Source of the DNA: Verrucomicrobiota bacterium
GTDB taxonomy: Bacteria; Verrucomicrobiota; Verrucomicrobiia; JABWAM01; JAHFSZ01
Assembly: GCA_023265515.1 (NCBI GenBank)
Contig: JAHFSZ010000005.1
Location: forward strand, 1-55,735
Direction: 5' to 3'
Length of the DNA stretch: 55,735 bases
Of this stretch, positions 22,267 through 29,345 are shown in pieces (the stretch's first letter is position 1; each line of letters opens with the position of its first letter). Both the position numbers and the translations under genes were made by a program. Under the pieces are notes generated by a model. It was not told the DNA's origin. It saw only the letters and a list, made by a program, of their open reading frames with translations, and ran no database searches.

Positions 22267-23016
22267 ATGAACGTCTGGGGTTACAGCCTTTTGAGCGTGG
22301 GCATCGTCAGTTTGCTCTCCCTGATCGGCATCGTCACGCTTTCCCTGAAGCCTCTGACGATGCGTAAAGTCATTTTTCACATGGTCAGTTTCGCCGTGGG
22401 CGCCCTGTTCGGCGACGCGTGCATTCACCTGATTCCAGAAACTTTCGAAAAAATCCGGCCGCCGCTGACCGGATCGTTTCTTCTGGTCGGCGGCATCCTG
22501 ATCTTCTTTGTGCTCGAAAAGTTCGTCCGGTGGCGCCACTGCCACGTTCCGGAGGAGGAGCATCAACACGTCCATCCGGTTGTCACGACCAACATTGTCG
22601 GCAACACCGCGCATAACATGATCGACGGCATGCTCATCGGGGCCAGTTACACGGCGAGCATTCCGATCGGCATTGCGACAACGATCGCGATCATCCTGCA
22701 TGAGATCCCTCATGAGATGGGCAACTTCAGCATCCTGATCCACGGAGGTTTGCCGGTTCAAAAGGCGCTCCTGGTCAACTTTCTTACGGCGCTTGCAGCC
22801 GTGCTCGGCACCGTCATTTCCCTCTTGATCGGCTCGCATGTGGAAGCTTTCACGCTCTGGCTTCTGCCGGTGACCGCCGGTGGTTTTCTCTACATTGCCG
22901 GATCGGACCTGATCCCCGAGCTCCATCACGAGGTGAATCTTCGGACCTCGTTCGGCCAGTTCGTCGCGATCATCCTGGGCGTGGGAATCATGGCGGCGCT
23001 CAAGTTCATGGATTAG
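22267..23016 (+). CDS. ZIP family divalent metal transporter
   Basis: His-rich loop HCHVPEEEHQHVH; HNMIDG; HEIPHEMGNF; GGFLYIAGSDLIPEL. Confidence 0.92.
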   Translation: MNVWGYSLLSVGIVSLLSLIGIVTLSLKPLTMRKVIFHMVSFAVGALFGDACIHLIPETFEKIRPPLTGSFLLVGGILIFFVLEKFVRWRHCHVPEEEHQHVHPVVTTNIVGNTAHNMIDGMLIGASYTASIPIGIATTIAIILHEIPHEMGNFSILIHGGLPVQKALLVNFLTALAAVLGTVISLLIGSHVEAFTLWLLPVTAGGFLYIAGSDLIPELHHEVNLRTSFGQFVAIILGVGIMAALKFMD

Positions 23017-23060: not shown

Positions 23061-24506
23061 TCAGAAATGAATTCCGGTCATGGAGAATGCAACCGCGATG
23101 GACGCCGCTCCGGCCCACATCAATGCGAACGGAATCCAGGTCTCGCGCTTGTGCATGAAAAAATAAATGACGTTGGGAAGCGGGTTGAAGAGAAACATCG
23201 CGATCGCCCAACCGATGCTTTCCTTCCAGGCCAAAACAACCATCCAAATACTGCCCGTCAGATACGTGATGAACCCTGCAAGGATGAGGATGTAGAGCCC
23301 CCTGGAAATATCCGGAATTTTTGTTCCGTCCTGTGCGAGAACGTTCCCGGAGGATTTTTTTGGCGGTTCCTTCGCGGCGGCTGACGAGACAGCAGGCTGG
23401 GCAGGGCCGGTGACGGCGGGTTTTGGAGCCTTTGCTCTTGGCTTGGAAATTTTCGCGGCGGCGGCGTTCGATGCCTTTGCCGCGGCGGCCAACGCCGCTT
23501 CCCTCGCCGACTGCTCCGCCCGTTCAAGGATCCCGACGACACCGGGCTGTCCTTTCTGGCGCGCCACATCAACGGCACTGCCCCCGCTGCCAGCCGACAT
23601 CTTCGCGCCTTTGCCGAGAAGCAAGGCCACGGCATTCGTCTGTCCTGCCGCGGCCGCGTGCATGAGCGGCGTCCAGCCCGCCTTGTCCTCTTCATCCAGT
23701 AAAGCGCCGCGTGAGATCAGGGTTTTCATCGCCTCCTCCCGGCCCGCGGCGGCGGCAACCATCAGCGGAGTCGCTCCGGTGGCCGGGTCCTGCTCCTTCG
23801 TGGAGGCGCCTGCTCCGATCAGCGCCTCGATGATGGCCGGCTGGCCGGACGCGGCTGCGCGCATCAACGGGCTCATCCCAGTGACATCCACCGTTTTCAA
23901 CAAATTTTTGTTTTTTAAAACGAGTTCACGGATGGTTTTGACATCCTCGATCAGCATGGCGGTTTTCAGGTCGGTGACTTTCACACCGGAATCCTTCAAG
24001 AGGCGGCAGACCTTCACGCGGCCCTTTGCCGAGGCAACCATCAGGGCGGTCTGTTCCAGGCCATTTTTTAGATTCAGATCGGCATCCCGCGCGATCAGGG
24101 CCTTGGCGATGTCGTCCCAACCGTTGGCAGCCGCCTCGATCAACGGTGTGTTGCCGCCAGGCAGGAGGCCGTTGACGTCGCCCGCCGTCCGGATCATTTT
24201 TTCAGCCTGCTGAACCGCTTCCCGTGACGGGGGCGTGAGATCCACATCGCCGGGCTCGATGATGGATTTGTCGGTCGAGGCGTTCAGCGCCGCCACCTGC
24301 TCGCGCGTCAGCACCGTCAGCGGCACGGTCTTGTTGCCGATCGCATGCGTGAAGGTGATCTGATTGTCCTTGAACTGTGAAAGCGTCACTCGTTCATACG
24401 TGAAGTCGCCGATGGTGAGCGAGTCAACCGGGGACTCCGCCCGTGCGAGGACGGACATGGCGATCAAAGTCAAAATAATGCCGGGTTGCCGCTTCATAAG
24501 AAACAA
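23061..24506 (-). CDS. Ankyrin-repeat envelope protein with conserved N-terminal beta-domain and C-terminal 3-TM module
   Basis: Repeated GxTPL/ALMxAA ankyrin motifs; shared N- and C-terminal modules with its neighbours. Confidence 0.88.
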   Translation of the reverse strand: MFLMKRQPGIILTLIAMSVLARAESPVDSLTIGDFTYERVTLSQFKDNQITFTHAIGNKTVPLTVLTREQVAALNASTDKSIIEPGDVDLTPPSREAVQQAEKMIRTAGDVNGLLPGGNTPLIEAAANGWDDIAKALIARDADLNLKNGLEQTALMVASAKGRVKVCRLLKDSGVKVTDLKTAMLIEDVKTIRELVLKNKNLLKTVDVTGMSPLMRAAASGQPAIIEALIGAGASTKEQDPATGATPLMVAAAAGREEAMKTLISRGALLDEEDKAGWTPLMHAAAAGQTNAVALLLGKGAKMSAGSGGSAVDVARQKGQPGVVGILERAEQSAREAALAAAAKASNAAAAKISKPRAKAPKPAVTGPAQPAVSSAAAKEPPKKSSGNVLAQDGTKIPDISRGLYILILAGFITYLTGSIWMVVLAWKESIGWAIAMFLFNPLPNVIYFFMHKRETWIPFALMWAGAASIAVAFSMTGIHF

Positions 24507-24507
24507 C

Positions 24508-25431
24508 CTACATCAAGAGATCGAAAAAACCCATTCGATAACGCAAGACGGGAATCGTCAACATCAGAAAACCGGCCGCGTAGATCCCATAGGGCAGAGC
24601 CGCCGTGCGAATGTGGAACATCCAGTAGATGAATCCGGCGACTGGATTGAAAAAGAAAATGAGCAGCGCCCAGGTCATGCTGTCGGTTTGATGAATGGCC
24701 ATGCCGATAAGCCACACTTCGCCAATGAAAAGCATGAAAAAACCGGCCCACGCCAGAAAGCGGACGAACCCGGGGACCTTGATCCGCGTCTCCGATTCCT
24801 CCTGCTCGGACTCCTGACCGTTACGGCCAAGCGAGCGGAACTCCTGGATCAACGCCTCCGTCGAAGCGGCCGCTTCAGCCACTGCCACCGGATTTTCCGC
24901 CGGAACAATGGGGGTTGTTGCCGGCGGGGCGTTCGTCGCAGGCGGAGGCGTTGGCGCCGCGGCCTGATTCGCGCCATTGGTCTGCAGGATCGGCGCCGGG
25001 GGGCTCGTTGGAGCCGCAACCTGATTCGTGGCCGCTGCCGGCGGCGCGATCTTGATCTTCGCGGAGGTCCGGTTGAGCGCCTCGATCTGGCCGGGCGACA
25101 GTTGAGACGCCGGAAGGTTTTTGAGGCCGTATGCATGGGAAATGACGACGGTCGTTCCGTCGAAGCCGGTGAGAGTCACGTTCTCGAAAGTCTTGTCACC
25201 GATGACCAGCGTCGGCAGAGGCTGCGGATTCGATTCCGCTGCCGCACCTGCGACGGCGTTGGTTGACGACAGAGGGGCGGCCACACCGGGTGCCGCGTTC
25301 GTCACGGGTGACTGGACTTGGCCTGGCGGGTTTGTGGTTTGGGCGAACACAGGTATCACCAGAGTCGCGACGAGAAAAACGAGGCCCAACAGCCCTGTTT
25401 GCTTCATTCGTAAAAAACGGACCGCAGGCAT
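24508..25431 (-). CDS. Paralog lacking ankyrin repeats: N-terminal beta-domain, Pro/Ala/Thr linker, C-terminal 3-TM module
   Basis: IGDKTFENVTL...SHAYG...QIEALN and WALLIFFFNP motifs shared with neighbours. Confidence 0.8.
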   Translation of the reverse strand: MPAVRFLRMKQTGLLGLVFLVATLVIPVFAQTTNPPGQVQSPVTNAAPGVAAPLSSTNAVAGAAAESNPQPLPTLVIGDKTFENVTLTGFDGTTVVISHAYGLKNLPASQLSPGQIEALNRTSAKIKIAPPAAATNQVAAPTSPPAPILQTNGANQAAAPTPPPATNAPPATTPIVPAENPVAVAEAAASTEALIQEFRSLGRNGQESEQEESETRIKVPGFVRFLAWAGFFMLFIGEVWLIGMAIHQTDSMTWALLIFFFNPVAGFIYWMFHIRTAALPYGIYAAGFLMLTIPVLRYRMGFFDLLM

Positions 25432-25438
25432 AAAGCGC

Positions 25439-27019
25439 CTAAAAGAGAAAGTCGAATACGCCGACCTGGTAGACCATCACAGGGATGCCCCACATCATCA
25501 GGCCGAATAGATAAAGGGCGAATGGAAACCACATTTCCTTTGGGTGCATGATGAAATAAACCAGAAATGCGGGGGGGCCGAAAAACAAGGTCAGCAGGCC
25601 CCACAGCGCGCTGTCATAAAATGCCATGCAGATGAACCAAAGCGATCCGCCGACGAAAAACATAAGGCCTGACCAGACGATGTATCGGACATAAGACGGA
25701 ACCTTCGCCATTTTTTGCTTGGTCTCCTCGACCTGCCTGGCGAGCTCCTTTTCAGCCGCCGTTTTGGATTCCATGATCTCCATCATCGATTGGACTGTCC
25801 TGGCATCCGCCTGCATTTGCTGGCCCTGCGCCTTCATCTGCTCCAACCCGGGATCCCGGTAATCCTCGGATGGGGGCGCTTTGTTTTCCGCGGACTTTTC
25901 CGCGGGCGCCGGCAGCTGAGGCGGGGGCTGTTGATTCTGCGCCTTCTGCTGTTGAGACAGCCTCTCGCGTGAACGCGCCTCCTCTTTTTCAAACCGTTCG
26001 GCTTCCGCAGTCTGCTGCCTGACCGCTTCCGTGTACGCGCTCTCCCAGCTCTTGACTTGTTTCTCGTAATAGGCGGCGGTGTCCGCCGCGCTTTTCGCGT
26101 TCAGATCCTCGGTTTGCGCCCTCGAGAGGTAGTCCTGGGCCTGCTGCTTTTCGGTCGGGTTGGCAAGCGCCCGGCTCAGCTGCGCCGCCTTCCGGCGGAA
26201 GGAGCCGGCCTTGTCCCGGCTTGCTTTCGCCTGCTCGTTGAACTGTTTGGCCTTGGCCCGGCATTCCTGGATATTCTTTTCGCAGTCGAGCATGTAAGGC
26301 GTTTTCGGCAATACCTTCGGCGCATGCCTGGCGCCGGCGCTTTTCAAAAGCGCGATGATCTTCGCGTCGCCCCGCGCCTCCGCCTCCTGAAGGGGCGTCG
26401 TTCCCAACCTGTTCATCAAGGTCACATTTGCGCTGCGGGCGATCAGCACTTTGATAATGTTGGCACGGCCGTTGGCAACGGCTTCGATCAGCGGCGTGTT
26501 GCCGTTGGAGAGCAGACCGTTCACCTCGCCGGCCGATTGAATGAGCGCGTCGGCTTCTTTGACAGCTTCCGGCGAAGGCGGCGTCAGATCCAACTGGCTG
26601 GTATCAATGAAGACCCGGTTGGTGGTTTTGTTCAGCGCACCAACCTGCTCCACGGTGAACGCCGCGACCGGCAGCGTCTTGGTCCCATACGCATGGGAAA
26701 AGGTGATGTTGGCGCCATCAAACGAGGTGAGGGTGACGCTTTCAAATGTCTTATCGCCTATCGTAAACGACGCCATTGGCCGGGGCTCCTCTGTTGCCAG
26801 TCCCTGCCCTTGAGCCCTGGCGGGACCGGCAGGCGCACTCGCTGCGGCTGGAGTGGCTGTCCCGGAATCCGCCGCGTTGGTGCCCGCGCCACGGGCAACA
26901 CCTTCGGCGACTGGCTCCGTCTGGGCGGATAAGAGCACCGTGACCAACAGTCCGGCAAACAAGATCAAAAATGGGAGCGTTGTGAGGCGCCGAAGCACCC
27001 TTCCGATAAACCAAAACAT
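25439..27019 (-). CDS. Paralog with N-terminal beta-domain, 2 ankyrin repeats, coiled coil and C-terminal 3-TM module
   Basis: GNTPLIEAVANG and GTTPLQEA; A/Q/E/K-rich coiled coil; WGLLTLFFGP. Confidence 0.82.
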   Translation of the reverse strand: MFWFIGRVLRRLTTLPFLILFAGLLVTVLLSAQTEPVAEGVARGAGTNAADSGTATPAAASAPAGPARAQGQGLATEEPRPMASFTIGDKTFESVTLTSFDGANITFSHAYGTKTLPVAAFTVEQVGALNKTTNRVFIDTSQLDLTPPSPEAVKEADALIQSAGEVNGLLSNGNTPLIEAVANGRANIIKVLIARSANVTLMNRLGTTPLQEAEARGDAKIIALLKSAGARHAPKVLPKTPYMLDCEKNIQECRAKAKQFNEQAKASRDKAGSFRRKAAQLSRALANPTEKQQAQDYLSRAQTEDLNAKSAADTAAYYEKQVKSWESAYTEAVRQQTAEAERFEKEEARSRERLSQQQKAQNQQPPPQLPAPAEKSAENKAPPSEDYRDPGLEQMKAQGQQMQADARTVQSMMEIMESKTAAEKELARQVEETKQKMAKVPSYVRYIVWSGLMFFVGGSLWFICMAFYDSALWGLLTLFFGPPAFLVYFIMHPKEMWFPFALYLFGLMMWGIPVMVYQVGVFDFLF

Positions 27020-27066
27020 GGCCGAAATCTCAAGCTGGTTCTCAGAAACCGGGTGGTGTCCTATGT

Positions 27067-27111
27067 TGTAGCGGCGCTCTATGAGCGCCGGCCCGGCGGT
27101 CGCAGACCGCC
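27067..27111. repeat. GTAG-type REP-like double hairpin (right end truncated)
   Basis: tgtagcggcgctctatgagcgccg-gcc-cggcggtcgcagaccgcc; sister copy at 39329. Confidence 0.8.
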
Positions 27112-27126
27112 AATTCGCCCTAGATC

Positions 27127-28662
27127 CTAGATATAAAAGCCGAGGAGGTTCACATCAAACAGCCACGCCGGGATTCCCATGATCAAGATGCCGGCCAGAT
27201 AGATCGCTAAAACGGGCATGGCGCCTCGCACGCGGACGAAGCAGTAAGCGGCCCCGCCGAGCGGGTTGAAAAACAGCACGACCAGCCCCCAAGCCAACCC
27301 GTCCTGGATCGCGATGAGAGTCAGCCAAACGTGTCCCACCGCGGAGATGATCAAGCCCGCCCACAAGAGGAATGGAACGTAGCGCGGCAGTGCGGCGCGC
27401 CTGGCCTCCTCCTCACCCTGGAGAGCCCGCTCGATTCCCAGGACACGCTTGAAGCTTCTTCGTTTTTCGGCCTTGATTTTTCCCGCATCCTCCTCAGCCT
27501 CCAGAAGCAAGGCCGCCAAGTCGCCGTGATCGCATTCCAAGGCGTGCTGCCGCGCCGTTTTACCGACGCGGTCGATGGCATCCGGCCGGGCGCCCCGTTC
27601 CAGGAGGAGCTCCACAGCATCCTTGTTATTCTTCCTCGCCGCAAGCATGAGGGAGTTCCGGCCTTCGCTGCGGTCGACGGCGCGGATTTTTGCCCCGTGA
27701 TCGATCAGGATTTTCATCATCTCAAGGGATCCGGATTCAGTGGCCGCCATGAGCGCAGTCATGCCCTTCTGGTCCCGCGCATTGACATCGACGCCTTTCT
27801 CGATGAGGATCCGGCCGGTCTGCGTTTTTCCCGTCTCGGCCGCATGGATGATCGCGGTGTTTCCCGCGTTGTCGCGGGCATCCAGCGAGGCTCCTTTCTC
27901 CGCCAGCAATTCCACGACTCGGTCCTGCCCAGCCCGGGCCGCCAGCATGATGACCGTCCGGCCCAACGCATCCGTCGTTTCAGTTGACGTGGGATCCTTG
28001 GCAAGGAAGAGCTTCACGATGTCCTCGTCGCCGGCCTGCGCGCGACCGATCAAATCGGGAATTTTCGCGCCGGCGTTCTCCAGCATCCCCGCAATCTCCG
28101 TGTAGCCGCGGATCGCGGCCTCGTACCAGGCAGTGTGGCCGTCCTTGTTGACGGCATTCGGATCAGCGCGCATTTTCAACACAACCTTGACGTAATCGGG
28201 CCGGCCCGTCAGGACCGCCTCGATCAGCGGCGTGTCTCCGTCCTCCAGCCTCCGGTTGACACCACCAGCCTGCGCAATCCAGTGGTCCACTTGTTTGAGA
28301 ACCTCAGGAGAAATCGGGTTCGGGTCGACCTTGGTGAGATCGATGCTGGCCAGAGTCGTGGTGCCATTGAGCGCCTTCATCTGGTCGAGGCTCAAACTGG
28401 AGACGGGGATGTTTTTGATCCCGGCGTCATGCAAGATGGTGGCATTGGTTTTACCGGCCGCCTTGAGCGTCACGTTCAGGTACACCCGCCCGCCCACCGT
28501 TAGGCTTGGCAGAGGCTTCGGCGCGGCTTGTGCCGCCGGCTTGTCCGCCGGGGCGGAGTTATCGGACTGGGCCGCGGCAAGGAGAGCCATGAAGCAGAAA
28601 ACAAGAATCGCCAGGGCCAATTTCACGGAGGCGACCTTAATGAGGTTCGAACAGCGTTCCAA
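27127..28662 (-). CDS. Ankyrin-repeat envelope protein (~8 repeats) with the shared N-domain and C-terminal 3-TM module
   Basis: Multiple ankyrin motifs; WGLVVLFFNP. Confidence 0.88.
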   Translation of the reverse strand: MERCSNLIKVASVKLALAILVFCFMALLAAAQSDNSAPADKPAAQAAPKPLPSLTVGGRVYLNVTLKAAGKTNATILHDAGIKNIPVSSLSLDQMKALNGTTTLASIDLTKVDPNPISPEVLKQVDHWIAQAGGVNRRLEDGDTPLIEAVLTGRPDYVKVVLKMRADPNAVNKDGHTAWYEAAIRGYTEIAGMLENAGAKIPDLIGRAQAGDEDIVKLFLAKDPTSTETTDALGRTVIMLAARAGQDRVVELLAEKGASLDARDNAGNTAIIHAAETGKTQTGRILIEKGVDVNARDQKGMTALMAATESGSLEMMKILIDHGAKIRAVDRSEGRNSLMLAARKNNKDAVELLLERGARPDAIDRVGKTARQHALECDHGDLAALLLEAEEDAGKIKAEKRRSFKRVLGIERALQGEEEARRAALPRYVPFLLWAGLIISAVGHVWLTLIAIQDGLAWGLVVLFFNPLGGAAYCFVRVRGAMPVLAIYLAGILIMGIPAWLFDVNLLGFYI

Positions 28663-28688
28663 GCCAAAACCCGGAAGAAGGTCCGGTC

Positions 28689-29345
28689 CTATTCCTTTGC
28701 TCCGGCTTTCAAAAGGATCTCACGCAAATCCATCCGTCCGCGAAGTTTTGCGATCATCAGCGCGGTCTGACCAGCCTTGGTCTTCAGGTTCACATTCGCG
28801 CCCTTCTCGATCAGCGTCGTGGCAATCTCGGCTTTACCGTCGAAAATGGCCCCCATCAATGGTGTGACGCCGTTGGCGTCGCCCAAGTTAAAGTCGGCGC
28901 CCTTTTCGAGAAGCATTTTAACGTTCTCGTGCTTTCCGGAAATCACCGCCCACATCAGGACCGTCGTTCCGTCGGCGGACTGGTCATTCACCTTGGCACC
29001 CTTCTCCATGAGAATCTTCATCGTTTCCAACTGGCCGTTGTGGGCCGCCGCCATCAGGGCCGTCCATCCCCCTTCGCTGCGTGCGGAAATATCCGCCCCT
29101 TTCGAGAGCAGAAGCTTGATGACCTCAGGGTGGCCTTCGCGCGCCGCCCACATCAGCGCCGTGCGCCCCTTGTCATCGCTCGAATCCACATCCACGCCCC
29201 TGGCCAGGATTCCCGCGACGGCGTCCTGGTCTCCCTTTTGGACCGCGTCGAGCAACGAGATGGCGTTGGTCGATGTTTGACCGGAAGACAATCCCGCCAC
29301 CGATAGCATCAGAAGAAAGAAACAGAGAATCGACGCTGATTTCAT
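28689..29345 (-). CDS. Secreted ankyrin-repeat protein (~5-6 repeats)
   Basis: Signal peptide followed by GRTALMWAA, GWTALMAAA, GTTVLMWAV, GVTPLMGA and GQTALMIA. Confidence 0.92.
   Translation of the reverse strand: MKSASILCFFLLMLSVAGLSSGQTSTNAISLLDAVQKGDQDAVAGILARGVDVDSSDDKGRTALMWAAREGHPEVIKLLLSKGADISARSEGGWTALMAAAHNGQLETMKILMEKGAKVNDQSADGTTVLMWAVISGKHENVKMLLEKGADFNLGDANGVTPLMGAIFDGKAEIATTLIEKGANVNLKTKAGQTALMIAKLRGRMDLREILLKAGAKE

Follow-up and report, generated by a model that had tools for sequence, protein, structure and literature searches.

Bd3460 of Bdellovibrio is a periplasmic ankyrin protein which inhibits the predator's own DD-endopeptidases (PMC4686830), and RARP-1 of Rickettsia parkeri binds periplasmic partners (bioRxiv 10.1101/2022.02.23.481736). 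The literature consulted held nothing specific on exported ankyrin proteins in Verrucomicrobia or on bacterial SHD1 domains. Here we analyse a stretch of 55,735 nucleotides (nt) from a Verrucomicrobiota bacterium (contig JAHFSZ010000005.1, positions 1 to 55,735; hereafter the window), in which five consecutive minus-strand open reading frames (ORFs) at 23061-29345 encode one ankyrin-only exported protein, ank0, and four paralogs, p4, p3, p2 and p1. The array is old and conserved, belongs to a rare lineage without cultured members and gives no evidence of an arms race, and the module that ends each paralog, the C-module, is an undescribed but widespread three-helix membrane module. Bd3460 and RARP-1 establish that binding roles for periplasmic ankyrins exist.

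Two terminal modules around distinct stalks

Each paralog combines a Sec-type signal peptide with an N-module of ~50 amino acids (aa) and a C-module of ~88 aa made up of three hydrophobic helices. Four-way alignment gave invariant or near-invariant columns following IGD.T[FY]..VTL...H..G.K..P...Q..ALN in the N-module and W....A......W.....FF[NG]P....Y...[HR] in the C-module. Paralog-versus-paralog E-values within the genome ranged from 5e-21 to 1e-3 and those of hidden Markov models (HMMs) of the modules from 1e-27 to 1e-39, far beyond chance, and the genome holds exactly four copies of the paralog family. The ORFs, the alignment and the HMMs confirmed what had been noticed from the letters of the DNA, namely tandem paralogs with two conserved terminal modules, an ankyrin-only gene at their head, and gaps of 26 nt (ank0-p4), 107 nt (p4-p3), 7 nt (p3-p2) and 1 nt (p2-p1). 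The 26-nt and 1-nt gaps hold only with TTG starts; p1 has an ATG 9 nt inside, and p4 of the relatives starts further in. The leaders of all five proteins, judged by eye, are of the n-h-c type, with a basic stretch followed by a hydrophobic one and an AxA-type site before Q/E. Base composition is flat over the region.

The N-module of p2 was modelled by AlphaFold2, with the family alignment as input, as four strands and a helix (residues 72-120) at a predicted local distance difference test (pLDDT) value of ~95, and the p3 model was the same. When the module was compared with the PDB by Foldseek, the top match was the SHD1 domain of Sla1 (2HBP), with probability 0.97, a target template-modelling score of 0.61 and a root-mean-square deviation (rmsd) of 2.0 Å over 55 columns, at an E-value of only 0.28; SH3 domains ranked after it. 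The SH3-type barrel with its C-terminal helix can be superposed on 2HBP, as the structural definition of SHD1 asks. SHD1 domains occur in 38 of 151 genomes of the phylum, and we built a profile from an alignment of 28 of those found in genomes of the same phylum. By hhalign, 40 columns of the N-module profile aligned in register to this verrucomicrobial SHD1 profile, with 67.6% probability and an E-value of 5e-5. Not one of the 77 N-module relatives matched SHD1 at E<=0.01, the genome itself is without a PF03983 match, and no Pfam or NCBIfam model matched the N-module when whole proteins and excised modules were scanned, which gave ankyrin matches and otherwise just noise below threshold. We read the N-module as a probable divergent sister of SHD1 within the SH3 fold, lying outside the Pfam family.

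A profile of both modules was run against 1.84 billion representative proteins and found 446 representatives at E<1e-3, of which only ~15 among the top 150 carry both modules. Of these top 150, 77 have the N-module but not the C-module; a hydrophobic segment at the N-terminus usually precedes it by ~140 residues, and Sel1, TPR, ankyrin, trypsin-like or FGE-sulfatase domains come after it. The C-module without the N-module occurs in 58, in three forms: as a stand-alone protein of 72-110 aa; at the N-terminus, followed by SH3-like, LRR or thioredoxin domains; and at the C-terminus, behind a signal peptide and DUF4124, SHD1 or other SH3-like domains. Shared by the wider C-module family are G..W (helix 1), AF.ES..WG (first turn), a proline (helix 2) and HW.EAKKP (second loop). 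Of 301 genomes sampled from the phylum, 21 (~7%) have the module, each in a single copy except the genome studied here, which has four. In the AlphaFold2 models of p2 and p3 it forms three hydrophobic helices, the second kinked at a conserved N-P, with pLDDT >90.

Foldseek gave no C-module match among the top 50 in the PDB, no Pfam or NCBIfam family scored above threshold for it, and the distant C-module matches were annotated only as 'hypothetical protein' in a cluster look-up. The original remark that neither terminal module matches a family that could be named was borne out by the Pfam and NCBIfam scans. Candidate families were tried and rejected. PLDc_N (PF13396) gave 14.1 bits (E 0.046) and 11.3 bits against a cut-off of 23.3 and an hhalign probability of 6.6%; the sole match of its model in the genome is an open frame of 481 aa on contig C99, away from the array. 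DUF5684 (PF18936) stayed below its cut-off of 27.4 bits, had no match in the genome and gave 12.8% by hhalign, and two of 58 distant C-module proteins match it at E-values of at least 0.0066. As a positive control, hhalign of the close against the distant half of the C-module set gave 99.8%. The NCBIfam matches of distant C-module proteins to PTPDL_fam and Lepto_7_Nterm sit on a separate N-terminal SH3-like domain. Since the C-module is strongly conserved and exists as an independent protein, we argue that it is probably more than a passive anchor.

Two further observations concern this module. A tail after helix 3, [HVL]Y.[VM]..F[DE][FL]L[FM], is present in p2 (24511-24543), p3 (25442-25474) and p4 (27130-27162), not in p1, and recurs in the distant C-module proteins P0022, P0024, P0065 and P0096; it may be a cytoplasmic interaction peptide. 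The C-module and small SH3-like domains also occur in both orders (P0056, P0154 and P0148 versus P0053, P0058 and P0113): either the module leads and the SH3-like domain comes after it, or a signal peptide and the SH3-like domain precede the module. Unless the module can insert in either orientation, its three helices would leave the SH3-like domain on different membrane faces in the two orders.

Between the modules lie stalks of different types. Against a cut-off of 27.3 bits, the Pfam ankyrin models scored 226 bits for ank0, 154 for p4, 109.5 for p1 and 32.1 for p3, so that these four pass the threshold, and gave no match for p2. Together with motif counts this amounts to ~8 repeats for p4, ~6-7 for p1 and two for p3, with p2 lacking any, in agreement with the counts first proposed for each paralog. 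Both p1 and p4 thus have an ankyrin solenoid as stalk; that of p3 consists of two ankyrins plus ~170 residues of long helices, and that of p2 is a linker of ~90 residues rich in Ala, Pro and Thr. This linker is disordered in the AlphaFold2 model of p2, and both flanking modules have pLDDT >90. The p3 model shows strands at residues 82-117, ankyrin helices at 176-227, further helices at 241-283, 288-362 and 390-439, and transmembrane (TM) helices at 442-517; the helices 241-283 and 288-362 reach pLDDT 96-98. What had been called a coiled coil in p3 corresponds to the three long helices between its ankyrin and TM helices. The middles had also been said to differ completely. They do not: p1, p3 and p4 are 35-52% identical over the 100 residues past the N-module, which comprise a helix and the first two ankyrin repeats and are conserved to a degree equal to that of the N-module itself. 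It would seem that p3 is an ankyrin paralog in which other sequence took the place of the later repeats, and that in p2 the entire stalk was exchanged in this way.

Orthology, selection and gene loss

The family is rare. A word-indexed search with p2 gave eight clusters, neither 10 genomes of the same order nor the GTDB species representatives contained a match to the family, and the metagenome contigs of JGI added one short contig only. In the relatives L008 and L014 the order is identical, with ank0 and a second ankyrin-only gene followed by p4, p3, p2 and p1; a convergent ZIP gene follows p1 in L008, and the L014 contig ends inside p1. Orthologs of p4 and of ank0 are present in L008, L011, L013 and L014, where ank0 heads the array, and the same four have p1 orthologs (partial in L014). 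Intact p3 orthologs are found in L008 and L014, p3 having been lost twice, in L013 and L011. The closest relative, L013, has three paralogs and is without p3, and its p2 bears the p3 leader (MFWFTGRVLRRL...); therefore, unequal recombination fused the start of p3 to p2 and the rest was deleted. In L011, p3 is a 110-aa remnant with internal deletions and p2 is without its C-module, a state common to P0008. L016, a metagenome-assembled genome from NCBI, has a single ankyrin-type gene beside ZIP and ClpB, the N-module of which groups with p4 (95/95 support in the N-module tree). The relatives thus have one, three or four copies, or four of which two are decayed.

Whether compared by local scores or by maximum-likelihood trees, the two modules sort into identical sets of four clades, those of p1, p3 and p4 being strongly supported. 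The agreement between the modules means that the quadruplication predates these lineages, and that the copies have been neither homogenised nor exchanged. Ratios of non-synonymous to synonymous substitution (dN/dS), determined by the Nei-Gojobori method against three relatives, were 0.08-0.32 for N-modules, stalks and C-modules alike. Ortholog stalks are 57-79% identical, with dN/dS of 0.17-0.29, and ank0 orthologs are 73-84% identical, with dN/dS of 0.10-0.16. The four paralogs form four separate orthology groups kept under purifying selection. Over a longer distance the stalk does change, a helical insert having been gained in a sub-lineage of the p2 clade (P0007, P0009). Going by these trees and alignments, the four genes descend from one p4-like ankyrin gene that was duplicated in tandem, with internal deletion or replacement of the stalk once per paralog, long upkeep and occasional loss.

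These data change the evolutionary picture originally drawn, that of a diversifying family with a swappable middle. Orthology is one to one in both modules, gene order is kept in L008 and L014, and the middles are under the same constraint as the modules, which supports neither diversification nor swapping. Variation of array content between relatives, the other part of that picture, is real in that copy number runs from one to four, but it involves no shuffling, and the four orthology groups are old. As the modules carry no family name and the array is not invariant, the finding as such stands and its evolutionary reading is altered.

One p1 ortholog departs from this regularity. In L011 (10823-12274), and likewise in P0018, the C-module is strongly divergent (LSPFSDLAFCCIHSDHTMKP). 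In the C-module tree this ortholog falls among distant outgroups and not with the remaining p1 proteins; its N-module is that of an ordinary p1, and the same lineage has lost p3 and the p2 anchor. The placement points to either module replacement or fast divergence.

Topology, proposed role and alternatives

The leaders predict export of head and stalk, with no further TM segment between leader and C-module. The orientation of the C-module can be read from distant relatives: P0084 and P0121 begin with a zinc ribbon, which is cytoplasmic, and a poly-basic stretch, and have a single additional TM segment ahead of the C-module; in P0125 a poly-basic stretch and one extra TM segment precede it. 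In all three, helix 1 of the C-module should run from outside to inside. Owing to the Sec signal peptides and to this orientation, the soluble parts most likely face the periplasm, as had been supposed for this family; the charge pattern disagrees. On the same prediction the cytoplasm would contain loop 1 and the short C-tail, and the loop with HW.EAKKP would lie on the outer side.

Lysine plus arginine residues per protein number 2.4 ahead of TM1 and 1.4 in loop 2, against 0.3 in loop 1 and 0.5 in the tail. These counts, positive before TM1 and in loop 2, fit an N-in module, and would suit a reverse arrangement in which the leader is uncleaved or the C-module inserts N-in and the ankyrin stalks serve as scaffolds in the cytoplasm, along the inner membrane face. 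Ankyrin repeats, moreover, fold fast and are harder to export, and some relatives carry the C-module N-terminally with a soluble domain after it. Nevertheless, we regard this arrangement as quite unlikely, given canonical n-h-c leaders with AxA-type sites in all five proteins and no TM segment ahead of the C-module, the N-out orientation indicated by the zinc ribbon or poly-Lys stretch with one TM segment before the module in relatives, and the partner domains of the N-module elsewhere, which are typical of exported proteins.

With moderate confidence, we propose that the array encodes a periplasm-facing set of scaffolds or tethers, anchored in the inner membrane and co-expressed from a conserved operon, a function drawn from the sequences and the models. 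Export and cleavage of the signal peptides would leave head and stalk in the periplasm, with TM1 of the C-module crossing from outside to inside and the short C-tail in the cytoplasm. The common SH3-like heads would reach out from the membrane to differing distances and bind one envelope ligand, while client envelope proteins would be bound by the ankyrin stalks and by the soluble ank0. The C-modules, which appear too conserved and too widespread for mere anchors, may link the four proteins with one another or with a further membrane complex. The short gaps between p3, p2 and p1 are consistent with co-expression in fixed stoichiometry.

Several results weigh against this proposal. By the positive-inside rule, the charges around the C-module would place the stalk in the cytoplasm. 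Pfam SHD1 (PF03983, cut-off 23.7 bits) gave no match at E<=10 for the four N-modules, and the stand-alone C-module genes of ten genomes have no recurring neighbour. Also, p3 is dispensable in two relatives and the p2 anchor is lost in one, which makes an obligatory complex of four parts unlikely; hetero-oligomerisation of the four paralogs may occur, and is something that we purely infer. We consider unlikely, for our part, a bolder version in which the four paralogs and ank0 form one inner-membrane complex through their C-modules, with the SH3-like heads at graded distances on rigid ankyrin, long-helix and flexible stalks. Such a complex would be a new tether between the inner membrane and the wall or outer membrane in a bacterium of the Planctomycetes-Verrucomicrobia-Chlamydiae (PVC) group, and the C-module would be an undescribed, widespread three-helix domain for oligomerisation or docking that also works alone (72-110 aa).

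If the array served immunity or self-protection, its periplasmic ankyrins would block envelope enzymes or toxins in the manner of Bd3460, the paralogs covering different toxins. A periplasmic ankyrin immunity protein is already documented (PMC4686830), tandem paralogs are frequent among immunity genes, and in L008, L011 and L014 a divergent gene for a secreted VanY/M15-type peptidase lies four genes upstream on the opposite strand. However, this gene is not beside the array in the window or in L013, and the neighbours scanned in the window are ordinary. Upstream are flavoprotein and NIR_SIR sulfite/nitrite-reductase-type genes; downstream, and syntenic with the relatives, are genes for a ZIP transporter, a trypsin-like PEP-CTERM protein, a cytidine-deaminase-fold protein and a FecR-domain protein. 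Among the flanking ORFs there was no toxin, secretion-system or mobile-element gene, and VipB/TssC, the sheath of type VI secretion systems, was not found in the genome, which is 88.5% complete; a role as cognate immunity to such a system, once suggested for the array, accordingly finds no support. With one-to-one orthologs under purifying selection in a syntenic core region without a shift in composition, and with the SH3-like head as the sole binding domain of p2, an immunity function seems improbable.

There is likewise only a slim chance that the ankyrins, being eukaryote-like, are displayed or released to act on a eukaryotic host or prey. The genome is small and, like its order, rich in ankyrins (32 Ank_2 matches in 2.2 Mb, and 139 in one relative of the same order), and many ankyrin ORFs bear signal peptides. 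Yet the C-terminal three-helix anchor holds four of the five proteins in the membrane of the cell itself, no secretion-system genes lie near the array, and a rickettsial ankyrin protein once thought to be secreted proved periplasmic (bioRxiv 10.1101/2022.02.23.481736). Finally, a contingency-type array of diversifying receptors, with the conserved ends as recombination handles for swapping middles, could appeal to the inter-copy recombination in L013 (p3 leader, p2 body, p3 deleted), the insert gained in the p2 clade and the varying copy number, but it is largely contradicted, and extremely improbable, as the trees of N- and C-modules are congruent in four clades without gene conversion or paralog exchange, the stalks are conserved between orthologs, and the changes observed are losses, not swaps.

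Features of the locus and comparison with described proteins

The coordinates of the genes and modules are collected in Table 1.

Table 1. Features of the ankyrin array and its convergent neighbour (positions in the window)
Feature	Coordinates	Strand	Basis
ank0: ankyrin-only, 218 aa, Sec signal peptide, heads the unit	28689..29345	-	Ank_2 E 5.6e-68 (Pfam)
p4: 511 aa; signal peptide, N-module, ~8 ankyrin repeats, C-module	27127..28662	-	ORF, Pfam, alignment, motif counts
p4 N-module, SH3-like, residues 52-101	28360..28509	-	four-way alignment; module HMM
p4 C-module, residues 425-511, three hydrophobic helices	27130..27390	-	alignment; module HMM
p4-p3 spacer, 107 nt, two GC-rich hairpins	27020..27126	-	read from sequence: GGCGGTCTGCGACCGCC and GGCGCTCATAGAGCGCC
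p3: 526 aa; signal peptide, N-module, two ankyrin repeats, long helices, C-module	25439..27019	-	AlphaFold2 model
p3 N-module, residues 83-132	26624..26773	-	alignment; AlphaFold2
p3 long helical segment, residues 241-362	25934..26299	-	AlphaFold2 pLDDT 96-98; A/Q/E/K-rich composition
p3 C-module, residues 440-526	25442..25702	-	alignment; module HMM; AlphaFold2
p2: 307 aa; signal peptide, N-module, A/P/T-rich linker, juxtamembrane helix, C-module	24508..25431	-	Pfam, alignment, AlphaFold2
p2 N-module, residues 72-120, four strands and a helix	25072..25218	-	AlphaFold2; Foldseek best match 2HBP
p2 C-module, residues 221-307	24511..24771	-	AlphaFold2 helices 221-248, 252-261/264-272 (kink at N-P), 274-298
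p1: 481 aa; signal peptide, N-module, ~6-7 ankyrin repeats, A/K/P-rich linker, C-module	23061..24506	-	ORF, Pfam, alignment, motif counts
p1 N-module, residues 29-76	24279..24422	-	alignment
p1 C-module, residues 400-481	23064..23309	-	alignment; module HMM
ZIP metal transporter gene, convergent with p1; context only, not claimed as part of the system	22267..23016	+	Pfam Zip E 1.8e-44

Two of the gaps contain predicted hairpins. Inside the 26-nt ank0-p4 gap, at 28671-28686 on the minus strand, a terminator-like hairpin (CCGGACCTTCTTCCGG) is followed by GTTTTGG; it could attenuate read-through and so set the ratio of the soluble ankyrin to the anchored proteins. The p4-p3 spacer, with its two hairpins, is a possible candidate for an internal regulatory or processing site. 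The stretch directly upstream of the p3 ATG would read NQLEISA, and L013 and L011 are near-identical there (QNRLEISP); this shared reading suggests a conserved leader, or an upstream start in the relatives.

The most constant neighbour of the family is the ZIP gene, which keeps its position in L008, L009, L013 and L016, the single-copy form included. A conserved unannotated gene pair lies ahead of the array in three relatives (L008:3883-5300, L011:4894-6236, L014:1974-3397); it does not adjoin the array in the window. Its first member is a membrane protein of ~128 aa with the motifs HWAVLQ..AW and FDG.HPC..C, and the second a signal-peptide protein of 316 aa that begins with a C(D)xCGC motif. 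The genome has other ankyrin-only ORFs with signal peptides, so that exported ankyrins are normal for this organism. A second tandem set, at C73:5158-7485 on the minus strand, comprises three ankyrin-only ORFs of this kind, of 222-262 aa and 38-41% identical to ank0, and more ankyrin ORFs are found at C81:3830-6657, C18:13987-14964 and C25:1760-2995.

The analysis delimits two domain families without a Pfam or NCBIfam model, the SHD1-like head and the three-helix membrane module, and the operon shows how one ankyrin gene was turned into four anchored proteins with distinct stalks. It adds to the few cases of ankyrin repeats in the bacterial periplasm and, if the role as tether or scaffold is true, bears on the unusual envelope organisation of PVC bacteria.

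Among described domains, SHD1 of Sla1 (PF03983, 2HBP) has the same small SH3-type barrel as the N-module, four strands and then a helix, and the distant relative P0080 fuses an SHD1 to the same C-module. The signature H..G.K..P...Q..ALN is, however, specific to the sister group formed by the N-module, and the yeast domain is cytoplasmic and binds NPFxD peptides, whereas the N-module here is probably periplasmic. The C-module shares with PLDc_N and DUF5684 a short local likeness at a Trp-rich helix with a conserved proline (W..L.LF.P), but differs from them in helix number and motifs. Human OSTF1 (3EHR), which ranked 2-5 when the p3 model was compared with the PDB by Foldseek (167-173 columns, rmsd ~14.6 Å), has the same order of parts, with ankyrin repeats immediately after a domain of SH3 fold. 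This human protein is, however, cytosolic and eukaryotic, without signal peptide or membrane anchor, and the high rmsd with p3 means that the parts match but not their arrangement; the resemblance is one of architecture, without evidence of shared descent.

Bd3460 and RARP-1 are, like the array proteins, Sec-exported ankyrins, and act in the periplasm of their own cell by binding envelope proteins. As far as their abstracts show, an SH3-like head or a three-helix anchor is reported for neither of them, both are single genes as compared to an operon of four paralogs, and Bd3460 adjoins its target endopeptidase, whereas no such target adjoins the array. The TonB and TolA tethers, an analogy only, have the opposite polarity, the array anchor being C-terminal and of three helices, with no ExbBD- or TolQR-like partner nearby and no sequence similarity; their logic is nevertheless similar, in that an anchor and a Pro-rich or long helical spacer carry a small distal binding domain.

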